Below are positions 3,399 through 59,358 of a stretch of DNA of 64,000 nucleotides, one piece after another (position 1 is the first letter of the stretch; every line of letters begins with the position of its first letter). The notes below the pieces were generated by a model. The model ran no database searches. It worked only from the letters and a program-made list of their open reading frames with translations, and was not told the origin of the DNA. This stretch comes from Actinomycetes bacterium (GTDB taxonomy: Bacteria > Actinomycetota > Thermoleophilia > BMS3ABIN01), in NCBI GenBank assembly GCA_021785935.1, contig JAJYOG010000007.1:417-64416 (forward strand). The letters are read 5' to 3'. Position numbers and translations under genes: made by a program.

Positions 3399-3461
3399 CC
3401 TAATTAGTATTGTGTCCCCAAAACTGGGGTGCTAATTAGTATTGTGTCCCCGAAATGGGGG
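3399..3461. repeat. Two direct copies of CTAATTAGTATTGTGTCCCC(A/G)AAA(C)TGGGG; each forms a CCCC-N5/6-GGGG hairpin
   Basis: Read directly at 3399-3431 and 3432-3461, between the dsrL stop (3462) and the terminator hairpin. The GTATTGTGTCCCCGAAAT core recurs at the murC start (32896-32921) in the opposite orientation relative to the + strand. Confidence 0.5.
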
Positions 3462-9226: not shown

Positions 9227-10024
9227 TCATCCCAGCACCTTCTCGAGGGCGGCTTCATTTTTCGACAAGCCCATGTAGAACACGTTTGGCTTGACCTCGA
9301 GGTTGGGCCTCAGCACCTGAACATTGCCGTCGGCTATCTGCCTGGCGACCTTCTCTTTATGGTCGTTGCGATTGCCGAAAGTAAGCGCCTTATGCGGACA
9401 CGCCTCAACACAGGCAGGAAGTTCACCGGCATCAAGGTCCTTGTGGGCGCAGAAAGTACACTTGGTCGCGACACCCAGCATCATGGCCGGCACCTTTTTA
9501 TTCTGCTCGTCGCGAGGCGTCGGGTTGTCACGGAAAACAATAGTCCTGGCCCGGTATGGACAGGCGATTACGCAGTAACGGCAGCCAATGCAACGATGCT
9601 CGTCGATAAGGACGATTCCGTCTTTTTCACGCCGGAAAGATGCCTTGGTCACGCAGACATGCACGCAGGGAGGATCAATACAGTGCTGACAGAGCAAGGG
9701 TAACGGGCGTTCTTCGGCGCCAGGCAGGTCCTGCTTCATCTCAGCGACCCGGATCCAGTACGGTGTGTAGCGCTTGGCGTCCTCGCCATAAACAGCTTCC
9801 AGGTCGGGCACGTTGTTTTCTTCCCGGCAAGCCTGCTCACAGACCTTGCAGCCGTTGCACTTGTTAAGGTCAACGGTCATGGAATACTGCATCTGGCTGG
9901 TGGTTGCCGACGAAGCCATGGAGGAGGTAACCAGCAACTGGGACGCAGGCATGGCCGCACCCGCGGCGGCTATCAAACCGCCGAGCTTAAGAAACGTCCT
10001 TCTGTCCATTCCTTCATTTGCCAT
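9227..10024 (-). CDS. dsrO: DsrO, periplasmic Tat-exported 4x[4Fe-4S] ferredoxin-like subunit
   Basis: 265 aa. Twin-arginine signal MDRRTFLKLGGLIAAAGAA. Multiple CxxCxxCxxxCP motifs. Confidence 0.85.
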   Translation of the reverse strand: MANEGMDRRTFLKLGGLIAAAGAAMPASQLLVTSSMASSATTSQMQYSMTVDLNKCNGCKVCEQACREENNVPDLEAVYGEDAKRYTPYWIRVAEMKQDLPGAEERPLPLLCQHCIDPPCVHVCVTKASFRREKDGIVLIDEHRCIGCRYCVIACPYRARTIVFRDNPTPRDEQNKKVPAMMLGVATKCTFCAHKDLDAGELPACVEACPHKALTFGNRNDHKEKVARQIADGNVQVLRPNLEVKPNVFYMGLSKNEAALEKVLG

Positions 10025-10507: not shown

Positions 10508-12084
10508 TCTTTTGCTCCCAGTTCGATGGCGTTGGCAATAAGCTGGTGGACGCCGCCGGCTACATTCATGGGCACATCATATTTGGGAAGGATCTTGGTG
10601 AACTGCGCCTTGCAAATTGCGCAGATAAGAGCGAGGAAGTTGACGCCGTGCGTCTCCTGAACCTTGCTGAATGCCTGCATGCGGGGCATTGCTCCCTGAA
10701 CGCGAAGCTCGAGCAGATCGTCGGTCAAAAGGCCGCCGCCACCGCCGCAACAGAAGGTCTTCTCCATAATGGTTTCCTCATCCATCTCCACGTAGCGGTT
10801 GCAGCTGGCTTTGATCAGATCGCGCGGGGTGGTGAACTGCCCGCCGGGTTTGTCACCCATCCTGGCTCCACGGGCCACATTGCATGAGTCATGCATGGTG
10901 ACCACGAATTCATCGTTCTGTGACTTGTCGAGCTTGATGCCGCCTCGATTCACCAGGTCGAGCGTGAATTCGCAAATATGTTGCGGCCTCTTGAAGTTGG
11001 GATCAAGCGTATCGAAGGGGCCGATGAGGGTATTCCAGAAGGAATAGGCAATCCTCCAGGCGTGGCCGCACTCGCCGACGATCAGGCGCTTGGGCTTGAT
11101 CTCCGCGATCGCGTTTTTGACGCGCGTCGCCACTTTTTGCATCTGGCCGTAATTGCCAATGAACATGCCGAAATTGCCGGCCTCGGAAGCTGTGGAGCTG
11201 AACGTCCAGCTGATTCCGGCCTGGTGAAATACCTTGGCGTAACCGAGAAGCGATTCCACGTGCGGCGAAGCGAAAAAGTCCGCCGACGGTGTTACCATGA
11301 GCACTTCAGCGCCTACCTCATCCAGGGGAAGCCGGATCTTTTGGCCGGTCTCCTCCTCGAGATCTTCTTCCGTCGACTCAAGAGTCGCCTTGAGCGCCTT
11401 GGGGTTCATTCCCAGGTTGTTACCAATGTCGTGAACCTTGGCGATGATGTCGTTTGTGTACTTCTGGCCGACACCGATGTGATCCATGATCTCGCGCGCC
11501 GCCATTGAAATCTCGGCGGTATCGATGCCGTAGGGGCAAAATACCGAGCAGCGGCGGCACTGGGAGCACTGGTGGAAGTAGCTGTACCACTCGCCCAGCA
11601 GATCGAGGTCGAATCTTTCCGCGCCGGCGATCTTGCCAAGGATTTTACCTTCGGTCGTGAAATATTTGCGGTAAACCTTGCGGAACAGCTCGGCGCGCGC
11701 CACAGGCATGTTCCGGCCATCCTGCGTGCCAATAAAATAGTGGCATTTGTCGGTACAGGAGCCGCACTTGACGCAAATGTCCATGTAGACCTGGAGCGAC
11801 TTGTACTTCTTGAGCAGCTCGGCCATCTTGGCGATGGCGGCGTCATGCCAGTCTTCACGCAGATCACCGGGGAAGCCCAGCTTCTCCATTGATTCTGACT
11901 TGCAGAGATATGGCTTGTGATTGGCAACGTCGCGCTCAACATGCGGTATCTTGATCTGCCCGGTAAGCTCATCGCCGTGGACGTCCTTTGGCTTTTTGCG
12001 CTCAGCCTTGGGCTCACCGACCTTTTCGAGGTCAGTTAAAACTTTTGGTTCTTCTTCGGTTACTGCTGCCTCATTGTCTGCCAT
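10504..12084 (-). CDS. dsrK: DsrK, cytoplasmic HdrD-like catalytic subunit with CCG domains and FeS clusters
   Basis: 526 aa. CxxCxxCxxxC motifs (CVKCGSCTDKCHY; CSQCRRCSVFCPYG) and a Cys-rich CCG-like C-terminal half (FCCGGGGG). Sits between dsrC and dsrJ. Confidence 0.85.
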   Translation of the reverse strand: MADNEAAVTEEEPKVLTDLEKVGEPKAERKKPKDVHGDELTGQIKIPHVERDVANHKPYLCKSESMEKLGFPGDLREDWHDAAIAKMAELLKKYKSLQVYMDICVKCGSCTDKCHYFIGTQDGRNMPVARAELFRKVYRKYFTTEGKILGKIAGAERFDLDLLGEWYSYFHQCSQCRRCSVFCPYGIDTAEISMAAREIMDHIGVGQKYTNDIIAKVHDIGNNLGMNPKALKATLESTEEDLEEETGQKIRLPLDEVGAEVLMVTPSADFFASPHVESLLGYAKVFHQAGISWTFSSTASEAGNFGMFIGNYGQMQKVATRVKNAIAEIKPKRLIVGECGHAWRIAYSFWNTLIGPFDTLDPNFKRPQHICEFTLDLVNRGGIKLDKSQNDEFVVTMHDSCNVARGARMGDKPGGQFTTPRDLIKASCNRYVEMDEETIMEKTFCCGGGGGLLTDDLLELRVQGAMPRMQAFSKVQETHGVNFLALICAICKAQFTKILPKYDVPMNVAGGVHQLIANAIELGAKE

Positions 12085-12596: not shown

Positions 12597-12635
12597 TTTC
12601 CATTTCCTCCTGTTTCGTTGTGACTTTTCTATTTA

Positions 12636-12940
12636 TTTCCCGGGCGAATGATGATCCGTGCTCCCGGCCTTCGTTTCCCGGGAACTGATTATTCCTTACC
12701 CGGACTTTCATTTCCCGGGGACATGATTATTCGTGTCCCTGGACTTTCATTTCCCGGGGACATGATTATTCGTGTCCCTGGACTTTCATTTCCCGGGGAC
12801 ATGATTATTCGTGTCCCTGGACTATATTGAGAGCAGCTTGCTCGCTGGAGCGCCTCTCACTAAACCTTTTATTTCCCCGAGAATAGGTCGTATCCCGGGA
12901 AATTCGTTCCCCGGGGACATGATCATTCGTGTCCCCGGAC
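12636..12940. repeat. Tandem array of about 6 hairpin-forming ~39-bp units (GGACTTTCATTTCCCGGGGACATGATTATTCGTGTCCCT) in the dsrM-dsrC spacer
   Basis: Three identical 39-bp units at 12702-12740, 12741-12779 and 12780-12818. Degenerate units at 12636-12669 and 12670-12705. One further copy at 12907-12940, ending 5 nt from the dsrM stop. Each unit contains the inverted repeat GGGGACA-N10-TGTCCC(C/T). Confidence 0.85.
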
Positions 12941-12945
12941 TCTAC

Positions 12946-13716
12946 TTATCCGGATGCTTCCATTGCCTCTTCCGCTACCGGCGTAGGCTCGGGCTGACCG
13001 CCCTCAGCCCACGGAGCTACTATCCGTTTCTCGCGGGGGTTATCCACCTGGTTGCGGGTCGGGCTGAAGAAGAGGCCCGCAGCGTGCATCAGCTTGCTGA
13101 AGGGAAAATAGGCCAGCAGCAACAAAACCAGACTGAAGTGGATGATAAAAATCGGCTGAGTGGGAAAATCGGCCGGCTTGAAAGCAACCAGGCCCATCAT
13201 GAAATCCTTGACCTGGGCAATGTCGACGCGGAAAAAGTGCTTGGCCAGGCTGCCGGTGCCGGCGATGGCGATCAGCAGGACAAGGAGGAAATAATCGGTC
13301 ATGACCGAGATGAACATGGTGCGGTCGACGATCAGTCTTAGCAGGAACAAAAGGCCAAGGCCGCCCAGCATGATCAGGCCCGGGTACATCTCGAAGGTGT
13401 CGATATAAGCGAGTGCTTCGGGAACGCTGGCGAATACAAAACGGTAATGCTTCACGAGGGCAAGAAGCAGACCAATATGGAAAACATAGCCGGCCAGCCA
13501 GATTACACGGTTACTCTTGAAAAGGCTTTTAAAGAGGACAACTTCGGAGAGGATTCTGGTCGGAACGCCTGAGGCCGTAACGGGCGCCGGAGTCTGCGGA
13601 ATCTTGAGCGGCGCCGGCGTTGACCCGTACTTCCATACCTTGGCGAGAACGCCTACAAGAAAAATTGCAATGGCTGCATACCCGAGAATCGCGAATAATG
13701 CTGTCAAACCGCTCAC
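12946..13716 (-). CDS. dsrM: DsrM, NarI/HdrE-like dihaem b membrane subunit
   Basis: 256 aa, 5-6 TM helices, NarI-like. Lies upstream of dsrC/dsrK. Confidence 0.75.
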   Translation of the reverse strand: MSGLTALFAILGYAAIAIFLVGVLAKVWKYGSTPAPLKIPQTPAPVTASGVPTRILSEVVLFKSLFKSNRVIWLAGYVFHIGLLLALVKHYRFVFASVPEALAYIDTFEMYPGLIMLGGLGLLFLLRLIVDRTMFISVMTDYFLLVLLIAIAGTGSLAKHFFRVDIAQVKDFMMGLVAFKPADFPTQPIFIIHFSLVLLLLAYFPFSKLMHAAGLFFSPTRNQVDNPREKRIVAPWAEGGQPEPTPVAEEAMEASG

Positions 13717-52697: not shown

Positions 52698-53768
52698 CTA
52701 GGGATAGTCAACCGGCTGGTAGGCACTGTCGCGCTGCACTGGCCTGCGGCCGGCGTCCCGGATGGCGGCTACCAGCTCTTCCTTGCCTACCCTGTAGCTG
52801 ATACCGGCTGCCGCAACCACATTCTCCTCGATCATGGTGCTGCCCATGTCATTGGCGCCGAAGAGGAGTGAAATCTGAGCCACCTTGATCCCCTGGGTCA
52901 CCCATGAAGCCTGGATGCTGGGCACGTTATCAAGGTAGATACGGCTGACTGCCAGCGTCATCAGGTAATCGATACCGCTGGAGGATGATGTGCCGGCAAG
53001 CTGGGTGTTATCCTCCTGGAAGGTCCAGGGGATAAAGGCGCGGAAGCCGCCGGTTTCGTCCTGTAGCTCGCGCACCCGCCGCAGGTGCTCGATGCGGTCC
53101 GCCCCGGTTTCGACGCTGCCGAACATCATCGTCGCTGTTGACTTAAGGCCGGCTTTGTGGGCGACGCCCATGACCTGGAGCCAGGTATCGGCGTCGATCT
53201 TTTTCGGGCTCATGCGCTGGCGCACATCGTTGACCAGGATCTCGGCGCCGCCGCCAGGCAGCGAATCCAGGCCGGCGTCACGCAGGCGCGCCACGGTCTC
53301 TTCAAGCGGCAGCCTGCTTACCTTCGAAATGTGAAAAATCTCGGGGGGCGACAAGGAGTGGATGGTGATGTCGTACCGTTCCTTGATGGCGCCGAAAAGG
53401 TCTTCGTAATAAGCAATGTCGAGCTTGGGATGCAGCCCGCCCTGCATCATGATGCCAGTGCCGCCAAGCTCGATCGTCTCCTCGATCTTGGCAAAAATTT
53501 CTTCATGGGTGAGAAGATAGCCCTCATCGGATCCAAGCGGCCGGTGGAAGGCGCAGAAATCGCAGCCGGTAACGCAGAAATTGGTGTAGTTGATGTTGCG
53601 GTCGACGATGAAGGTGACGTCGTTCCCCGGATGCAGGCGGCGGCGGACAGCATCGGCTGCCTGACCGGCGGCGATTAGTTCTTGGCTCTCCAAAAGCTCG
53701 AGCGCCTCCGACTCGCTGATACGCTCTCCAACCCTGGCTTTATCTATAATTTTAGTTAGCGGTATCAA
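52698..53768 (-). CDS. mqnC: Radical-SAM futalosine-pathway enzyme, MqnC-like (cyclic dehypoxanthinyl futalosine synthase)
   Basis: 356 aa. CxxxCxxC (CVTGCDFCAF) and the MqnC/MqnE family C-terminal domain. Called MqnC rather than MqnE by position after mqnA; the assignment could be swapped. Confidence 0.6.
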   Translation of the reverse strand: MIPLTKIIDKARVGERISESEALELLESQELIAAGQAADAVRRRLHPGNDVTFIVDRNINYTNFCVTGCDFCAFHRPLGSDEGYLLTHEEIFAKIEETIELGGTGIMMQGGLHPKLDIAYYEDLFGAIKERYDITIHSLSPPEIFHISKVSRLPLEETVARLRDAGLDSLPGGGAEILVNDVRQRMSPKKIDADTWLQVMGVAHKAGLKSTATMMFGSVETGADRIEHLRRVRELQDETGGFRAFIPWTFQEDNTQLAGTSSSSGIDYLMTLAVSRIYLDNVPSIQASWVTQGIKVAQISLLFGANDMGSTMIEENVVAAAGISYRVGKEELVAAIRDAGRRPVQRDSAYQPVDYP

Positions 53769-54655
53769 GAAATAAACTTAAGTTCCGGGGCGCCGGTGAT
53801 AGCCCCAATATCAGCCGCCCGCCGGTAGTATTCTTCGAGTCCCAACCTGAATTCATTAGTGAAATCATAACGAAGCTTGGCGAAATAGGCGCGCAGGAGC
53901 TCTGTCTCAAAGGGATATTCCCTGGCCGCGGCCGCTACCACTTCGTCCCAGTGCGAGCGGCAATAGTCTACCGAGTACAGCAATCGCTCTTCAATCTCGA
54001 AAGTCTCATCGGGCCGCGCGGCAAAGAAATCCCGCGACACCGCCCAAAGGGCAAAGACCATGGGCAGGCCGGTGAACTCTTTCCATTCAATGCCAAGGTC
54101 GTAACAATAATCCCAGCTGCCGAGGAAACAGGCTTCGAGAGCCTGATCCCCGATCAGCAGCACCGCGTTGTGACTTTCAAGCGCCTCGGCGGTGCCAGAT
54201 TCCAGTTGCGAAAAAGACGCGTCAATCGCGTACTTTTGCTTGAGTAAAATTTTGAGCAGCACCACGGATGTCGCGCTCTGCCCGGTCAGGGCCACAGATG
54301 AGACTTTCTCAAAAGGAACGCGCGAGATCAGGCGGATGCTGTCGACGGCGCCGTCCGCTGTTATGGAGAGTCGGGGGAAGAGCAACAGCTTATCCGCGTT
54401 CCCTGCATACTCAATGGAAGAGATGGGGCTGATATCCAGCTTGCCCTCGAGTAAAAGGCCGTTTAAGTAGGTAGGTACGCCGCGGACGAGATTGAAGCAG
54501 TTCCAACCCGCTCCCTGTTCGAGGCCGTAATAGAGCGGATAGCCATTTAGAAATTCAAAGTGGCCGATGTTGATGGTGGCCGTTTCCTGCGGACCCTGCC
54601 CGGCAGCCGGTGCCATGGCCGGCTCGGCGCCGCTGTTGTTTTCCTCAGGCTTCAT
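53765..54655 (-). CDS. mqnA: MqnA/MqnD-family protein (chorismate dehydratase-like, futalosine pathway)
   Basis: INIGHFEFLNGYPLYYGL matches the MqnA N-terminal motif, with a periplasmic-binding-protein-like fold. Start taken at the internal Met (MKPEENN). Confidence 0.6.
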   Translation of the reverse strand: MKPEENNSGAEPAMAPAAGQGPQETATINIGHFEFLNGYPLYYGLEQGAGWNCFNLVRGVPTYLNGLLLEGKLDISPISSIEYAGNADKLLLFPRLSITADGAVDSIRLISRVPFEKVSSVALTGQSATSVVLLKILLKQKYAIDASFSQLESGTAEALESHNAVLLIGDQALEACFLGSWDYCYDLGIEWKEFTGLPMVFALWAVSRDFFAARPDETFEIEERLLYSVDYCRSHWDEVVAAAAREYPFETELLRAYFAKLRYDFTNEFRLGLEEYYRRAADIGAITGAPELKFIS

Positions 54656-55727
54656 ACCTGCGCATCTCGTTGTAGAGAGTGTCACGCTCGACCGGCACGC
54701 GCCCGGCGTCACGGATCAGCCGGATGAGCTCGTCCTTGGCGATGGCCTCTTCGGTCTCAGCGCCGGCGGCATGGGTGATCTTCTCCTCGACCACAGTGCC
54801 ATCGATGTCGTTGACGCCGAAGTGGAGCGAAATCTGCGCCACCTTGATCCCCAGCATGATCCAGAAAGCCTTGATGTTCTGAAAATTGTCGAGCATGAGG
54901 CGGCTGACCGCCAGCATCTTCAGATCCTCAATGCCGCTGGTTCCGGACAACTCCGAGAGCTCGGTATTGGCGGGATGAAACGCCAGCGGGATGAAGCTGC
55001 CGAAACCGCCGGTTTCATCCTGGAGTTCACGCAGGCGCACCAGATGATCGATGCGCTCTTCCAGGGTCTCCACATGGCCGTAAAGCATGGTCGCGTTTGA
55101 CTTGATACCTACTTTGTGGGCGGTGCGCATGACCTCGAGCCACTTCCCTCCTGAGATCTTCTTGTCGCAGACAATGCCGCGCACGCGCTCGGCAAAGATC
55201 TCGGCGCCGCCGCCCGGCATGCTGCCCAGGCCGGCTGCTTTCATCTCCCGGAGCACTTCTTCCTCTGTACGCTTTGTGCGTTTGGCGAAGAAGGCAATCT
55301 CACTGGCGGTAAACGCCTGCAGATGCACATCCGGATCGAGCCCCCGCAGCGAGCGGATCATCTCCAGGTAGTAATCGTAAGGCAACGAGGGATGCTCCCC
55401 ACCGACGATATGCAGTTCGGTGATGTTGTCGGCCAGCGATTCGCGAGCCCGGTCGAGAACTTCCTCCAGGGTCATGGTGTAGGCGTCATCGGCCCCCTCG
55501 TCGGCGCTGAAGGCACAGAACTTGCAGCGGTTACCGCAAACATTGGTGTGGTTGATATGGCGGTTGTTAATGAAAAAGACATCATCGCCGGCAATGCGGC
55601 GCCTGGCAGCGTCGGCCAGCTCACCGACTTTCAAGAGATCTTCCGTCTCCAGGAGCGCTACGCCGTCCTCGAAAGACAGCCGCTGCCCCGCTCTTACTTT
55701 TTCCGCAATAGCATTCATGGCATTCAT
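54645..55727 (-). CDS. mqnE: Radical-SAM futalosine-pathway enzyme, MqnE-like (aminodeoxyfutalosine synthase)
   Basis: 360 aa. CGNRCKFCAF radical-SAM motif. Paralogous to the gene at 52698-53768. Confidence 0.6.
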   Translation of the reverse strand: MNAMNAIAEKVRAGQRLSFEDGVALLETEDLLKVGELADAARRRIAGDDVFFINNRHINHTNVCGNRCKFCAFSADEGADDAYTMTLEEVLDRARESLADNITELHIVGGEHPSLPYDYYLEMIRSLRGLDPDVHLQAFTASEIAFFAKRTKRTEEEVLREMKAAGLGSMPGGGAEIFAERVRGIVCDKKISGGKWLEVMRTAHKVGIKSNATMLYGHVETLEERIDHLVRLRELQDETGGFGSFIPLAFHPANTELSELSGTSGIEDLKMLAVSRLMLDNFQNIKAFWIMLGIKVAQISLHFGVNDIDGTVVEEKITHAAGAETEEAIAKDELIRLIRDAGRVPVERDTLYNEMRRYEA

Positions 55728-55879
55728 GGGGACGTACGTTTCCTATGTTTCCTAACTTCAGTAATCATTAGAGCTTCATTCTTTCAACTCATTTTCGCAG
55801 TCTATCGATCCAGATAGAAGATGTTCTCTTTCTGTTCCCGGGCAAGTCGAGTTAGGAAACATAGGAAACGTACGTCCCC
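55728..55879. repeat. 152-bp MITE-like element: two perfect 29-bp inverted repeats (GGGGACGTACGTTTCCTATGTTTCCTAAC ... GTTAGGAAACATAGGAAACGTACGTCCCC) flanking a 94-bp AT-richer core
   Basis: Read directly. Arms at 55728-55756 and 55851-55879. The element exactly fills the spacer between the M16 peptidase stop (55884) and the mqnE start codon (55727). Each arm carries an internal direct repeat GTTTCCTA x2. Confidence 0.8.
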
Positions 55880-55883
55880 GCCC

Positions 55884-57179
55884 TCAGCTTTTCTTCACTT
55901 CAAGCTGGCGCTGTCCACCCAAAATATCGAGCGCCTTTTCAAAAACTTTCACGTCGGGGCCAATGGCGACCGCGACCATATCCTCGGGCCGGTAAAGATC
56001 AGCCGCCAGCTGCCTTACGTCGGCGGCGGTAACTGCATCTATTCGTTCGATTATCTCATCCATCGAGAGGATATCGGATCCCGTCACCGTCAGCTTGCCC
56101 AGGCGGCTCATGCGGTTGTGGGTTGTTTCCATCCCCAGCACGGTGCGTCCCTTGGCGTTCTCTTTGGCTCGCGTCAACTCGCCATCATCCACACCATTCT
56201 CGACGATCGACTGCAGCTGCCCGGTGACGATTCCCGTGACCTCGGAGACGCTTTCGCCCCGGCACCCGAAATAGATGCCGACCAGCCCCGAGTCGGAATA
56301 AAGCGTGCTGAAGGAGTAAACCGAATACGCAAGCCCCCGTTTGTCCCTAACCTCCTGGAACAGGCGCGAACTCGCAGATCCTCCCAAAATGCCATCGAGA
56401 ATTGTGAGGGCAAAACGCCGATCTGAGTGGCGCGTAAGCCCCAGCCCGCCAAAACAGACGTGGTATTGCTGGGTATCCTTCTCGTAAAAACAGGCATTTT
56501 CAGCTACCTTGCGGGCGGGTGCCGTCACTGTCCTGGCCTGACTGGCGGCGCCGTTGCCGGCGGCCAGATGCCGGGTTGCCAGCTCCACCAGCTGCTCCTG
56601 TTCGATATTTCCCGCGGCCGCCACCACCATATTCGGCAAGGTGTAATGTCCGCTATGGTAACCCTTTATCTGTTCGGGAGTAACGGCGGCTATTATCTGC
56701 GTTGTTCCCAGGACACTCTTACCCAGCGGATGGCCGTTAAAGATCGCCTGGGTGAGGTAATCCGTGATCAGCTCGCCGGGGGAATCCTCATACATAGCAA
56801 TCTCCTCAACAACCACCTCACGCTCGAGGTCGATCTCGGCAAATACCGGGTGCACGACCATGTCGGCCATGACCTCGAAGGCTTCATCCAGGTGCTCATC
56901 CAGGAAGCGGGCATGCACAACGGTGTACTCACGCGCGGTGGCGGCGTTGAGTTCGCCTCCGAAGGAATCAAAGATCTGCGCGATCTCAACCGCGTTATAC
57001 TTCGAGCCACCCTTGAACAGCAAGTGCTCGATGAAATGGCTGACGCCACTCTCTTCGGGCTGCTCGTAACGGGAACCGGCGCCGATCCAGAAGCCTAAAG
57101 AGATGGAGCGGACGGACCGCAGCTTTTCGCTGACGACCCGCCCGCCCCCTTCAAGCTGTTTCAGCTTATAGCTTCGGAT
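55884..57179 (-). CDS. M16-family (pitrilysin/insulinase) zinc peptidase; 5' end has no canonical start codon
   Basis: HFIEH inverted zincin motif lies upstream of the ORF-track start. The frame is open back to 57179 (IRSYKLKQLEGGGRVVSEKLRSVRSISLGFWIGAGSRYEQPEESGVSHFIEHLLFKGG) with no ATG/GTG/TTG before the TTG at 57023. Confidence 0.75.
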   Translation of the reverse strand: MRSYKLKQLEGGGRVVSEKLRSVRSISLGFWIGAGSRYEQPEESGVSHFIEHLLFKGGSKYNAVEIAQIFDSFGGELNAATAREYTVVHARFLDEHLDEAFEVMADMVVHPVFAEIDLEREVVVEEIAMYEDSPGELITDYLTQAIFNGHPLGKSVLGTTQIIAAVTPEQIKGYHSGHYTLPNMVVAAAGNIEQEQLVELATRHLAAGNGAASQARTVTAPARKVAENACFYEKDTQQYHVCFGGLGLTRHSDRRFALTILDGILGGSASSRLFQEVRDKRGLAYSVYSFSTLYSDSGLVGIYFGCRGESVSEVTGIVTGQLQSIVENGVDDGELTRAKENAKGRTVLGMETTHNRMSRLGKLTVTGSDILSMDEIIERIDAVTAADVRQLAADLYRPEDMVAVAIGPDVKVFEKALDILGGQRQLEVKKS

Positions 57180-59358
57180 TTAGGTCAACCACCCTCAGGC
57201 CGATGCGCTGCTTGCCCCGGTCTTCCTTGACTTCAATCACCTCGACCTGAACCATCTGACCGCGCTTGACCACATCTTCCACCTTGTTGACACGGCCTTC
57301 GGCCAGGTTGGAGATGTGCACCAGGCCATCAGTGCCACGCTTCAACTCGACGAAGGCGCCAAAATCAGTAGTCTTGACGACCTTGCCGACGAAAACGTCG
57401 CCGGCCTCGACATCCTTGGTCAGCTCGTTGATGCGCTTAATGACAGCCTCGCCGCTGGCGCCGTCACGGGCACAGATGAAGACGGTGCCGTCCTCTTCCA
57501 CATCGATCGAGCAGTCGAATTCGTCGACGAGACCGCGAATGGTCTCGCCGCCCTTGCCGATGAGGGCGCCGATCTTTTCAGGGTTGATCTGGATGGAGAA
57601 GATGCGTGGGGCGTACTCGGACAGCTCGGTCCTTGCCTCGGGCATGACTTCCAGCATTTTGCCAAGCACATGCATGCGGCCGCGCTTGGACTGCTCCAGC
57701 GCCTCGGCGAGCACTTCAGGGGTAATGCCTTCCTTGATCTTAAGGTCCATCTGGATAGCGGTAATGCCGTCCTTGCTCCCGGTCACCTTGAAGTCCATGT
57801 CGCCGAGGTGATCCTCGATACCGGCGATATCAGTGAGGACAACATAGTTGGCATCGACGTCTTCCGAGCCGCATTTCTCGCAGTGGCGCAGGAAGACGCC
57901 CTCGAAACCGCAACTGCGGCATTCGGAGCGAACTACCAGGCCGCAGGCGATGCCGCTGATGGGGGTCTTGATGGGAACGCCCGCGTCCATGAGCGCCAGG
58001 GTCGAGCCGCAGGTGCTCGCCATCGATGAGGAGCCGTTGCTCTCCATGATCTCGCTCACCAGGCGGATAGTATAAGGGAACTCATGCTCGTCCGGAATCA
58101 TGGGCCGAAGCGCCTTTTCCGCCAAGGCTCCATGGCCGATGTCACGCCTCTTGGGGCCGCGCATGAAGCCAGTCTCGCCCACCGAGAACGGCGGGAAATT
58201 GTAGTGATGGATGTACCGCTTGCTGTCTTCCAGGCCGAGGCCGTCGATCCGCTGGTAGTCGCCGACAGCACCCAGGGTAAGCAGTGTCATCGCCTGGGTC
58301 TGGCCGCGGGTAAACAGAGCCGAGCCGTGCGTGCGCGGGGCGACGCCGACCTCGACGCTGATCTCACGAACTTCTTCAACGCCACGCCCGTCGGGACGGA
58401 GCTTGTCGACCGCGATTGAGCGCCTGACAACGTCCTTCTCAATCGCCTTGGCGATCGATACTACCGAGCGGACGAAATCCTCGGGCGAATCTTCCTTAAC
58501 CAGCTCGCCTTTGACCGTACCGCGAATCGCTTCGATACGCTCGGAGCGCTCCTGCTTATCGGTGAGGCGGTTGGCCTCTTCCAGATCCGTGCGGCAGATG
58601 GATTCAATCTTCGCGTAGAGTTCCTTGTCGAACTCGGGCTCCTCGTGGACCCACTTGGGTTTGCCGACCGCCTCGCGCAGCTCATCCTGAAGCTGACAAA
58701 GCTGACGGATTGGCTCCTGGGCGAAACGTACTGCTTCCATGGCGACCGCTTCGGTTATCTCCGAGCCGCCGGCCTCGATCATGAGGATCGACTCGGCGGT
58801 GCCGGCGATCACCATATCGAGGTCGCAGTCCGGTTCCTGCATCTGTTGCCAGGTCGGGTTCAGCACCAGCTCGCCCGCCAGCCGGCCTACACGAACAGCG
58901 GCAATCGGCCCCTGGAAGGGAATCTCCGAGATCGAAAGGGCCGCAGAAGCGCCGACCAGCGCCAGCATGTCATAAGCATTCTCCTGATCTGTGGAGAGGA
59001 TGGTCGCGATGATCTGGGTTTCGTTAGAAAAACCCTTGGGGAATCGAGGGCGTACGGGACGATCGATCAGCCTCGCGGTCAGGATCGACTTCTCGCTGGG
59101 CCGGGCCTCCCTCTTGATGAAGCCACCGGGAATCTTGCCGGCAGCGTACATGCGTTCTTCGATATCGACGGTGAGCGGGAAGAAATCGATGCCTTCCTTA
59201 GCCTCGGTGCGTCCGGTCGCCGTCACCAGCACCATCGTGTCGCCGCATCTCATGATAACGGCCCCGTTAGCCTGCTTGGCTACGCGGCCGGTCTCGATGG
59301 ATATGGTTTTGCCGCCCAACTCGATGCTTTTGGTTGTAATAGTGGTTTCTGTGGCCAA
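57166..59358 (-). CDS. pnp: Polyribonucleotide nucleotidyltransferase (PNPase)
   Basis: 730 aa. Two RNase PH domains, a KH domain and a C-terminal S1 domain (GDVFVGKVVKTTDFGAFVEL). Confidence 0.95.
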   Translation of the reverse strand: MATETTITTKSIELGGKTISIETGRVAKQANGAVIMRCGDTMVLVTATGRTEAKEGIDFFPLTVDIEERMYAAGKIPGGFIKREARPSEKSILTARLIDRPVRPRFPKGFSNETQIIATILSTDQENAYDMLALVGASAALSISEIPFQGPIAAVRVGRLAGELVLNPTWQQMQEPDCDLDMVIAGTAESILMIEAGGSEITEAVAMEAVRFAQEPIRQLCQLQDELREAVGKPKWVHEEPEFDKELYAKIESICRTDLEEANRLTDKQERSERIEAIRGTVKGELVKEDSPEDFVRSVVSIAKAIEKDVVRRSIAVDKLRPDGRGVEEVREISVEVGVAPRTHGSALFTRGQTQAMTLLTLGAVGDYQRIDGLGLEDSKRYIHHYNFPPFSVGETGFMRGPKRRDIGHGALAEKALRPMIPDEHEFPYTIRLVSEIMESNGSSSMASTCGSTLALMDAGVPIKTPISGIACGLVVRSECRSCGFEGVFLRHCEKCGSEDVDANYVVLTDIAGIEDHLGDMDFKVTGSKDGITAIQMDLKIKEGITPEVLAEALEQSKRGRMHVLGKMLEVMPEARTELSEYAPRIFSIQINPEKIGALIGKGGETIRGLVDEFDCSIDVEEDGTVFICARDGASGEAVIKRINELTKDVEAGDVFVGKVVKTTDFGAFVELKRGTDGLVHISNLAEGRVNKVEDVVKRGQMVQVEVIEVKEDRGKQRIGLRVVDLNPKL

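Follow-up and report, generated by a model that had tools for sequence, protein, structure and literature searches.

What is a perfect inverted repeat of 152 bp doing in the narrow spacer between the genes for an M16-family peptidase and the menaquinone-pathway enzyme MqnE? The question is raised by a 64,000-nt stretch of Thermoleophilia DNA (contig JAJYOG010000007.1 of assembly GCA_021785935.1, positions 417 to 64,416; hereafter the window), in which the element fills positions 55728-55879. An initial annotation had suggested either a miniature inverted-repeat transposable element (MITE) or a very stable bidirectional terminator or insulator. We consider it very likely that the element is instead a non-autonomous doublet resembling a REPIN, a hairpin-forming pair of repetitive extragenic palindromic (REP) sequences. 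Its repeat unit would be the terminal inverted repeat (TIR) of a single-copy transposase of the Y1/HUH class that resembles the REP-associated tyrosine transposases (RAYTs) and carries a helix-turn-helix (HTH) like that of DnaA domain IV, placing the system with the TIRYT enzymes and TIRtron structures of subclass 2.1.2.

The element and its empty sites

The element consists of two repeat units, tips outward, around a core. Its parts, in window coordinates, are:

55728-55879, transcribed on the minus strand: whole element, 152 bp, a tips-outward doublet of the repeat unit plus core, at the M16-mqnE junction
55728-55757, plus strand: arm 1, 30 nt, the unit GGGGACGTACGTTTCCTATGTTTCCTAA followed by CT, abutting the mqnE ATG; the 28-nt unit also occurs in the related loci L002-L057
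55850-55879, minus strand: arm 2, 30 nt, the inverted copy of the unit, separated from the M16 stop by 4 nt
55758-55849: core, 92 nt, about 52 nt longer than the usual core of 39-40 nt
55728-55736, plus strand: tip GGGGACGTA, with a mirror copy at 55871-55879 on the minus strand; nearly invariant among 65 units
55737-55754, plus strand: two direct 9-nt boxes, CGTTTCCTA and TGTTTCCTA, with a mirror copy at 55853-55870 on the minus strand
55880-55886, minus strand: M16 stop codon TGA (55884-55886) and a leftover 4-nt spacer (55880-55883, GGGC on the transcript strand)

The two arms are complementary at 100% over 30 nt and form the sole perfect inverted repeat of at least 18 nt in the 64 kb. The arm had 0 matches in 100 dinucleotide shuffles of the window, and the arm pair is present there as a single copy, with no other arm at ≤3 mismatches. 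The inverted repeat described in the initial annotation is thus real, with slightly different dimensions: arms of 30 nt and a core of 92 nt rather than 29 bp and 94 bp, and 0 nt rather than 1 nt between the element and the mqnE ATG, the 4 nt to the M16 stop being as described.

Comparison of the orthologous junction in nine contigs (L053, L054, L055 and L008-L013) found the element absent from all nine. The closest relatives, judged by MqnE, are L055 (protein P0260, 92.5% identical) and L053/L054 (P0257, 91.7%), in which a 13-nt spacer joins the two genes (...GGGC TGA agcgcagatcacc ATGAACGCAATC..., with an ATGAAC start), whereas the window reads ...AAGC TGA gggc (152 bp) ATGAATGCC ATGAATGCT ATT.... 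Where MqnE is 86-90% identical, the spacer measures 41-45 nt (L008-L011) or is lacking altogether (0 nt; L012, L013), and no trace of the arms is seen. With empty sites in the nearest relatives, the window copy qualifies as a lineage-specific insertion, and the alignment indicates that the element entered a 13-nt stop-start junction lacking a Shine-Dalgarno sequence in the lineage of the window. No target-site duplication surrounds the window element (flanks TTCAT and GCCCT), also when the empty sites are included in the comparison. Of the two sister genomes GCA_054606475.1 and GCA_054635895.1, the former has an empty M16-mqnE site (L055) and also encodes the transposase, bounded by its ends (L056). 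A single-copy element conserved in position among relatives had been named as the outcome that would favour a terminator or structural RNA; what we find is an empty site and arms that are multi-copy in related genomes.

The window derives from a metagenome-assembled genome (MAG), and errors of assembly or amplification can create perfect palindromes, so a chimeric palindrome has to be considered. Against such an artefact, three contigs carry an identical MqnE protein, the other two with mostly the same neighbour genes (compared at the level of gene content). Moreover, the same arms appear in dozens of independent assemblies, always in orderly arrangement and, in doublets, tips outward. We therefore regard the probability of an assembly artefact as practically nil.

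A dispersed repeat unit and its transposase

The arm belongs to a dispersed family. A 20-mer of it was found at six loci in three Thermoleophilia MAGs (GTDB species representatives), and a 24-mer with two degenerate positions in 35 stretches of Joint Genome Institute (JGI) metagenome contigs from five samples; at ≤6 mismatches there are about 65 non-redundant units. Their consensus is A or G followed by GGGACGTACGTTTCCTATGTTTCCTAA, with each of positions 2-28 conserved in at least 59 of the 65 units, and T predominates at the two positions that follow. Immediately before position 1, 56 of the 65 units have a pyrimidine (C in 37), which together with the A or G at position 1 possibly marks a target or cleavage dinucleotide Y/R.

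The arrangement of the units is regular, as judged from row counts that include a few duplicate loci. All 16 doublet rows are tips-outward and span 88-120 bp, their lengths peaking sharply at 95-96 bp; at 152 bp, the window copy is longer than any of them. A further 26 rows hold unpaired units, conserved as well as the paired ones; two of these rows are the ends of one gene (L004+L007), which leaves about 24 true singlets, many of them within a few nucleotides of a stop or start codon. Three further rows are pairs about 1.0 kb apart that enclose a gene. By crude calls of open reading frames (ORFs), at least 53 of 63 units lie between ORFs. The remaining 10 fell inside crude ORFs, calls that we distrust because the cases checked by eye (e.g., L018, L019, L030) sit at gene boundaries. 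No flanking duplications were seen around the other doublets and singlets.

Overall conservation is lacking among the cores of the doublets. Short motifs beside one arm recur within two subsets, one comprising L003, L016, L021 and L040, which the window matches weakly through CCCGGGAAC, the other L002, L014 and L003-2036. The 92-nt window core has no copies in all of the fetched DNA by sequence search, its likeness to other cores being confined to the short CCCGGGAAC-type motif beside one arm that it shares with some 95-96-bp doublets; as a core without copies elsewhere, it shows that the element is not a copy of a fixed-core MITE. The L003 doublet at 2036-2131 carries an identical A-to-T variant in both arms, which hints that arms may be copied or corrected together.

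Some singlets occupy noteworthy positions. In L019 (2371-2398) and L024 (1192-1219) one separates two genes; its first bases overlap a TAG stop, and the ORF that follows (MFPNLTVGVLALQGAFREH...) shares its frame with an ATG inside the singlet (CCTATGTTTCC), so that the repeat may supply a start codon. Others lie directly beside tRNA genes, at L005 669-696 (between two tRNA genes), L025 9122-9149 and L037 517-544.

The gene enclosed by the units identifies a candidate enzyme. An ORF of 305 aa lies between units at L004+L007 (L017 and L022 represent this locus too), and its product matches the Pfam families Y1_Tnp (5e-15), Bac_DnaA_C (PF08299; 7.8e-8) and HTH_23 (3.5e-3) and, over its full length, the NCBIfam model REP_Tyr_transpos ('REP-associated tyrosine transposase'; 73.6 bits, cutoff 80). 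The HUH histidines H57 and H59 and the catalytic Y116 are invariant among 26 aligned homologues. A phmmer search of PDB sequences gave no match to the transposase, and in a profile search of PDB only DnaA domain IV was confident (E 2e-5). Because sequence searches were confident on the DnaA domain alone, the link of the N-terminal part to known structures required a fold search. With the AlphaFold model of the protein (predicted local distance difference test, pLDDT, 86.5), the best PDB match was 4ER8, the E. coli TnpA-REP protein bound to a REP hairpin (E 1.4e-6, template modelling (TM) score 0.70), followed by the TnpA proteins of ISDra2 and IS608, while the C-terminus matched the DnaA DNA-binding domains 3PVP and 1J1V.

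Homologues bounded by essentially the same unit were found at L050/51 (88% identity), L056/57 (87%), L049 (54%), L047 (54%) and L052 (49%), and inverted units of 24-28 nt stand at both gene ends in L004+7, L047, L049, L050, L052, L056, L058 and L060. Every gene found between ends encodes a Y1/HUH enzyme (eight transposase lineages). The locus is syntenic in three lineages, in the order WecG-gene-UbiB, and no second transposase copy occurs among the fetched loci. The protein family is large, with more than 7,600 homologues at E ≤ 1e-20, some of which JGI annotates as RayT. The 27-nt unit is nearly unchanged beside transposases only 49-55% identical to each other (L047, L049 and L052 versus L004), and is thus far better conserved than the protein presumably acting on it.

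In the mechanism that we propose, the transposase would mobilise units in trans, its HTH reading the two 9-nt boxes and its Y1 domain cutting at the GGGGAC tip or close to it; the substrate would presumably be single-stranded DNA, as it is for TnpA-REP and the IS200/IS605 insertion sequences (IS).

A classical MITE, derived by deletion from an IS that encodes a DDE transposase and moving by cut-and-paste with staggered target cuts, would also have perfect TIRs, and the size of 152 bp, the intergenic position, the absence from relatives and the 9-nt direct duplication beside one end would all suit it. However, the 9-nt copies lie in tandem on one side rather than flanking the element, the other flank (GCCCTCAG) being unrelated, and doublets and singlets alike lack flanking duplications. 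Furthermore, the solo units outnumber the pairs, and between the ends there is always a Y1/HUH gene and no DDE parent. This origin is accordingly extremely improbable. Of the MITE proposed in the initial annotation, the non-autonomous mobile element survives, on the strength of the empty sites and dispersed arms; the usual kind of MITE does not, given the missing target-site duplication and the Y1/HUH enzyme.

It is also conceivable that the units are operator-like sites of a domesticated, transposase-derived DNA-binding protein, immobile and under selection for a role in the host, for example in regulation or nucleoid organisation. The almost perfect conservation of the singlets, the near identity of the unit beside transposases that are 49-55% identical, a gene that is present once among the fetched loci and shows synteny in three lineages, and the combination of a DnaA-type HTH that binds double-stranded DNA with two 9-nt boxes in the unit would all fit this explanation. 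The presence or absence of the element at the window site nevertheless differs between close relatives, unit positions are not conserved, and the invariant HUH motif and catalytic tyrosine argue for retained nuclease activity. We judge domestication to be unlikely, although a better contender than a classical MITE.

Several points limit, or weigh against, the REPIN-like doublet with a TIRYT-type enzyme that we favour. What we infer about binding, cleavage, mobilisation and effects on RNA comes from homology and sequence patterns, and MAGs and metagenome contigs supply most of the related sequences. The window itself offers one doublet copy and, by tblastn, no transposase gene in its 64 kb, the multi-copy units and the enzyme being seen in related genomes. 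Its core is unrelated to other cores and 52 nt longer, which casts doubt on movement as one piece. The NCBIfam score falls just under the cutoff, and by sequence alone 4ER8 is reached only at E 0.79. Finally, a single unit as single-stranded DNA has a minimum free energy of -0.1 to -0.2 kcal/mol, no better than shuffles, and as it does not fold, the hairpin recognition of TnpA-REP cannot simply be transferred; a REP-like palindrome was rejected as a description of the single unit for the same lack of a fold.

The closest parallel comes from Di Nocera et al. 2013 (PMC3733652), who describe RAYT-like genes flanked by long TIRs instead of REPs, name the structures TIRtrons and the enzymes TIRYTs, note a GGGGWSAS tip in many of the TIRs, and report that in some species TIRs form moderately abundant families of singles, dimers and clusters. 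According to Quentin et al. 2018 (PMC6006769), most TIRYTs fall in Y1 subclass 2.1, with a subgroup 2.1.2 carrying Bac_DnaA_C or HTH_23/28. In the present system, too, long inverted repeats that are not palindromic and start with GGGG enclose a Y1/HUH gene whose product has a Bac_DnaA_C-type HTH, and the repeats are also scattered as singles, dimers and clusters, here across related MAGs and metagenome contigs. In all, the family shows four of five TIRtron/TIRYT features, the gene being assessed in the relatives' loci. The tip, here GGGGACGT, matches the first six of the eight positions of GGGGWSAS but not the last two; PMC3733652 gives that consensus for some TIRs only. The two 9-nt boxes and the recurrent tip duplications described below are not found in the available portions of PMC3733652 and PMC6006769. 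The host is a member of the Thermoleophilia, and the word 'Actinobacteria' is absent from the main text of PMC3733652, PMC5581495 and PMC6006769.

As in REPIN-RAYT systems (Bertels & Rainey 2011, PMC3116915; Bertels et al. 2017, PMC5581495), two inverted short units form a long hairpin, and the units, which are extragenic, multi-copy and non-coding, flank an apparently single-copy, syntenic tyrosine transposase (synteny in three lineages) whose best fold match is TnpA-REP (4ER8); single-copy, syntenic behaviour is also reported for RAYTs (PMC5581495). In contrast, the unit here is not a palindrome or hairpin, has no GTAG tag and lacks the 8-9-bp stem of CGTC-type REPs described in PMC3733652. 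The enzyme also differs by its extra HTH that binds double-stranded DNA, and the copy density seems modest, at one doublet per 64-kb window. With IS200/IS605 elements (IS608, ISDra2) the system shares the catalytic fold and insertion without target-site duplication. Those elements have subterminal hairpins, not TIRs, and are autonomous and multi-copy, whereas here the gene seems single-copy and the ends proliferate without it. As the family falls outside the strict definitions of both REPs and classical MITEs, we file it with the TIRYT/TIRtron kind, working like REPIN-RAYT.

Two further repeat families touch on this one. The GGGGAC...GTCCCC signature noted earlier as common to several window repeats is borne out by an array at 12635-12953, where about five tandem 39-nt units and one more 118 nt on each contain the hairpin GGGGACATGATTATTCGTGTCCC. 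This array is a second GGGGAC-type family, and its hairpin adjoins a unit in L030 (~340-365). A third family, at 3400-3460 of the window, comprises about two tandem copies of CTAATTAGTATTGTGTCCCC..., the reverse complement of which, GGGGACAC, fits the published GGGGWSAS tip exactly; it also occurs in tandem at L046 1817-1872, 3 nt from a unit.

End architecture and tip duplications

The unit can be divided into three 9-mers, the tip GGGGACGTA followed by the direct boxes CGTTTCCTA and TGTTTCCTA. The more distant transposases of L058 and L060 (48% and 47% identical) have ends with the same GGGGACGT tip and the same plan of two 9-nt boxes, but different boxes: GGGGACGTAC-CTATCCTAA-CCGTCCTAA in L058/59 and GGGGACGTTCC-TGCCTTTTT-TGCCTTTTT in L060. 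The boxes thus change as the transposases diverge. PMC6006769 states that DnaA domain IV reads 9-bp boxes, notes that the GGGG tip is unlike a DnaA box and leaves the role of the HTH open. From the 9-bp reading of DnaA domain IV and the three box variants, we infer that the 9-nt boxes are HTH binding sites and that the Y1 domain acts at the tip.

The tips are also the site of a second recurrent feature. Exact tandem duplications of 9-11 nt of flank abut the tip in the window, L002, L003, L017 and L044, and longer ones, which include part of the tip or whole units, lie beside transposase genes in L017/L022, L052, L056, L058 and L049:

Window 55711-55728: 9-nt tandem duplication, two copies of GCATTCATG (ATGAATGC repeats), abutting the tip; coding strand ATGAATGCC ATGAATGCT, encoding MNA-MNA
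L002 2620-2641: duplication abutting the tip
L003 3277-3296: duplication abutting the tip
L017 2224-2241: duplication abutting the tip
L044 ~204-221: duplication abutting the tip
L017/L022, 26 nt (L017 3284-3335): longer duplication
L052, 12 nt, about three copies (~9835-9875): longer duplication
L056 ~10890-10925: longer duplication
L058, 16 nt, ending exactly after GGGGAC (~9885-9918): longer duplication
L049, 46 nt (973-1098): longer duplication

Against a background of about one exact tandem duplication of at least 8 nt per 10 kb, the tip-associated ones are far in excess, and none abuts any of the ~24 singlets. As L004 and L017 are the same locus without and with duplications, the duplications must be recent and recurrent. 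Replication slippage at a hairpin cannot account for those cases in which the two ends lie 1 kb apart. Our best guess is that the transposase nicks at the tip and that limited strand-displacement synthesis and rejoining follow, with the caveat that the duplication boundaries are not uniform.

In the window, the duplication falls within mqnE. The protein begins MNAMNAI, compared with MNAI or MNEI in relatives, and as the relatives start with a single such motif, the first three mqnE codons (9 nt) have been duplicated in tandem in the window. We suggest that this doubling would have occurred at the tip after insertion. The resulting gene has two in-frame ATGs, as listed here with its neighbourhood:

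55725-55727, minus strand: first mqnE ATG, touching the base of the stem
55716-55718, minus strand: second mqnE ATG, the counterpart of the ancestral start (MNAI...)
54645-55727, minus strand: mqnE, a radical-SAM/CofH_C ORF of 360 aa, whose closest homologues are annotated aminofutalosine synthase MqnE
57166-59358, minus strand: gene for polynucleotide phosphorylase (PNPase), pnp

Taken together, these patterns allow a bolder proposal, in which the ends are bipartite, with the GGGGACGT tip as Y1 cleavage site and boxes read by the HTH that co-vary with the protein, and the recurrent duplications of 9-26 nt are footprints of an abortive nick-extend-rejoin 'stutter'. We offer it tentatively and give it a modest chance of being right. 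If it is true, bipartite ends would explain the DnaA-like domain whose role Quentin et al. left open, and the 'stutter' would be an undescribed local activity that can rebuild gene starts, such as the MNA-MNA start of mqnE.

The junction and its consequences

The genes around the element form a compact, co-oriented group, with MqnD-like and MqnC-like genes downstream of mqnE on the minus strand, like all genes here; the closest MqnE proteins are annotated as Thermoleophilia or Actinomycetota. The M16 peptidase (55893-57179, minus strand) can be aligned with its L053 counterpart along 432 aa without a change of frame. Its conserved N-terminus has no ATG, GTG or TTG, the frame opening at an ATC directly after a TAA at the very end of pnp, and the orthologous gene call in L053 overlaps the end of pnp by 14 nt. 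Owing to this missing start codon, mechanical ORF calls look truncated, at 379 aa; a real N-terminal truncation was rejected on the basis of the one-frame alignment of 432 aa with the L053 protein. Two pairs of direct repeats, 52822-52981 with 54781-54940 and 53220-53276 with 55179-55235 (74% identical, 1959 nt apart), are paralogous radical-SAM genes (MqnC-like and MqnE) and not mobile DNA. Gene order downstream of the mqn operon is variable: L008 and L011 have a Tricorn-like gene, L008 (15758-17796) also AbiE and a BrnT/BrnA toxin-antitoxin pair, and the window holds hdr-like genes at that place.

A cis-regulatory RNA of the host, separating the rpsO-pnp-M16 genes from the mqn genes as a terminator, insulator or attenuator, would make sense of a very stable stem sitting exactly in the intercistronic gap. 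The 201-nt RNA in transcript sense has a predicted folding energy of -72.8 kcal/mol, compared with -42.7 ± 4.1 kcal/mol among shuffles (z = -7.4), and a simple terminator scan flags one feature, the 6-bp tip hairpin and T-rich tail of each unit. The 30-bp stem itself, however, is followed by no U-tract on either strand (AUGAAUGCC in the sense direction, GCCCUCAGC and GCCCUCAGCUUUUC on the other strand), and the window has no Rfam match at gathering thresholds, the best match below them being a plant miRNA precursor (38 bits, threshold 139.7), as any long hairpin might give. Scanning the junction for sigma-70 promoters yielded none. Moreover, the element is missing from 9/9 orthologous junctions, including those of the relatives whose MqnE is 92% identical, and the same arms occur at unrelated loci. 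A regulatory RNA of the host is therefore very unlikely, and as an identity for the element, the bidirectional terminator or insulator of the initial annotation was not upheld.

The REPIN-like doublet may nevertheless influence the transcript that it entered. In the predicted structure, both mqnE ATGs lie in 6-nt internal loops of a helix that continues from the stem, and it is plausible that the hairpin hides the mqnE initiation region, with the start codon abutting the stem base. Given an ancestral junction without a Shine-Dalgarno sequence and the overlap between M16 and the end of pnp, translation was probably coupled. The insertion would set 152 nt between stop and start, and the 30-bp stem would rejoin them at its base, with no free Shine-Dalgarno sequence. 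As tentatively as for the bipartite ends, one may suppose that a coupled stop-start junction can tolerate the arrival of a perfect hairpin if the base of the stem holds the two codons together.

At the RNA level, the best model for the window copy is, by analogy, provided by the Correia (NEMIS) elements of Neisseria. These measure ~100-155 bp, with a conserved core and duplication of a TA target; the window element differs in its variable core, the lack of a target duplication and the Y1 partner of its family. Like Correia elements and other transcribed bacterial MITEs, it is an inverted-repeat element beside genes, and would be co-transcribed with them and form a long stem of double-stranded RNA. 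REP-type hairpins block 3' exonucleases. The stem is expected to act as a barrier to such enzymes and as a substrate of RNase III, in line with findings on other transcribed inverted-repeat elements. The abstract of PMC2649163 describes transcribed Correia elements as able to bind RNase III, with cleavage or protection by the enzyme as the outcome. It seems likely, judging from these parallels, that the element changes the expression coupling or processing of mqnE and M16 rather than terminating transcription.

For genome annotation, the locus is a reminder that perfect palindromes break assemblies and can mislead the calling of start codons, mqnE having two in-frame ATGs from the duplication. 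For the organism, the element represents selfish-type repeat DNA, a recent and lineage-specific arrival in the densely packed housekeeping operon pnp-M16-mqnE, and not a conserved regulator, and with filled and empty sites in close relatives its mobility is directly testable. The family documents a TIRYT/REPIN-like repeat system in uncultivated subsurface Thermoleophilia. Its plan of a tip and two 9-mers gives a testable role to the DnaA-like domain of a widespread transposase class, and the tandem duplications of flanking sequence are a possible footprint of activity.

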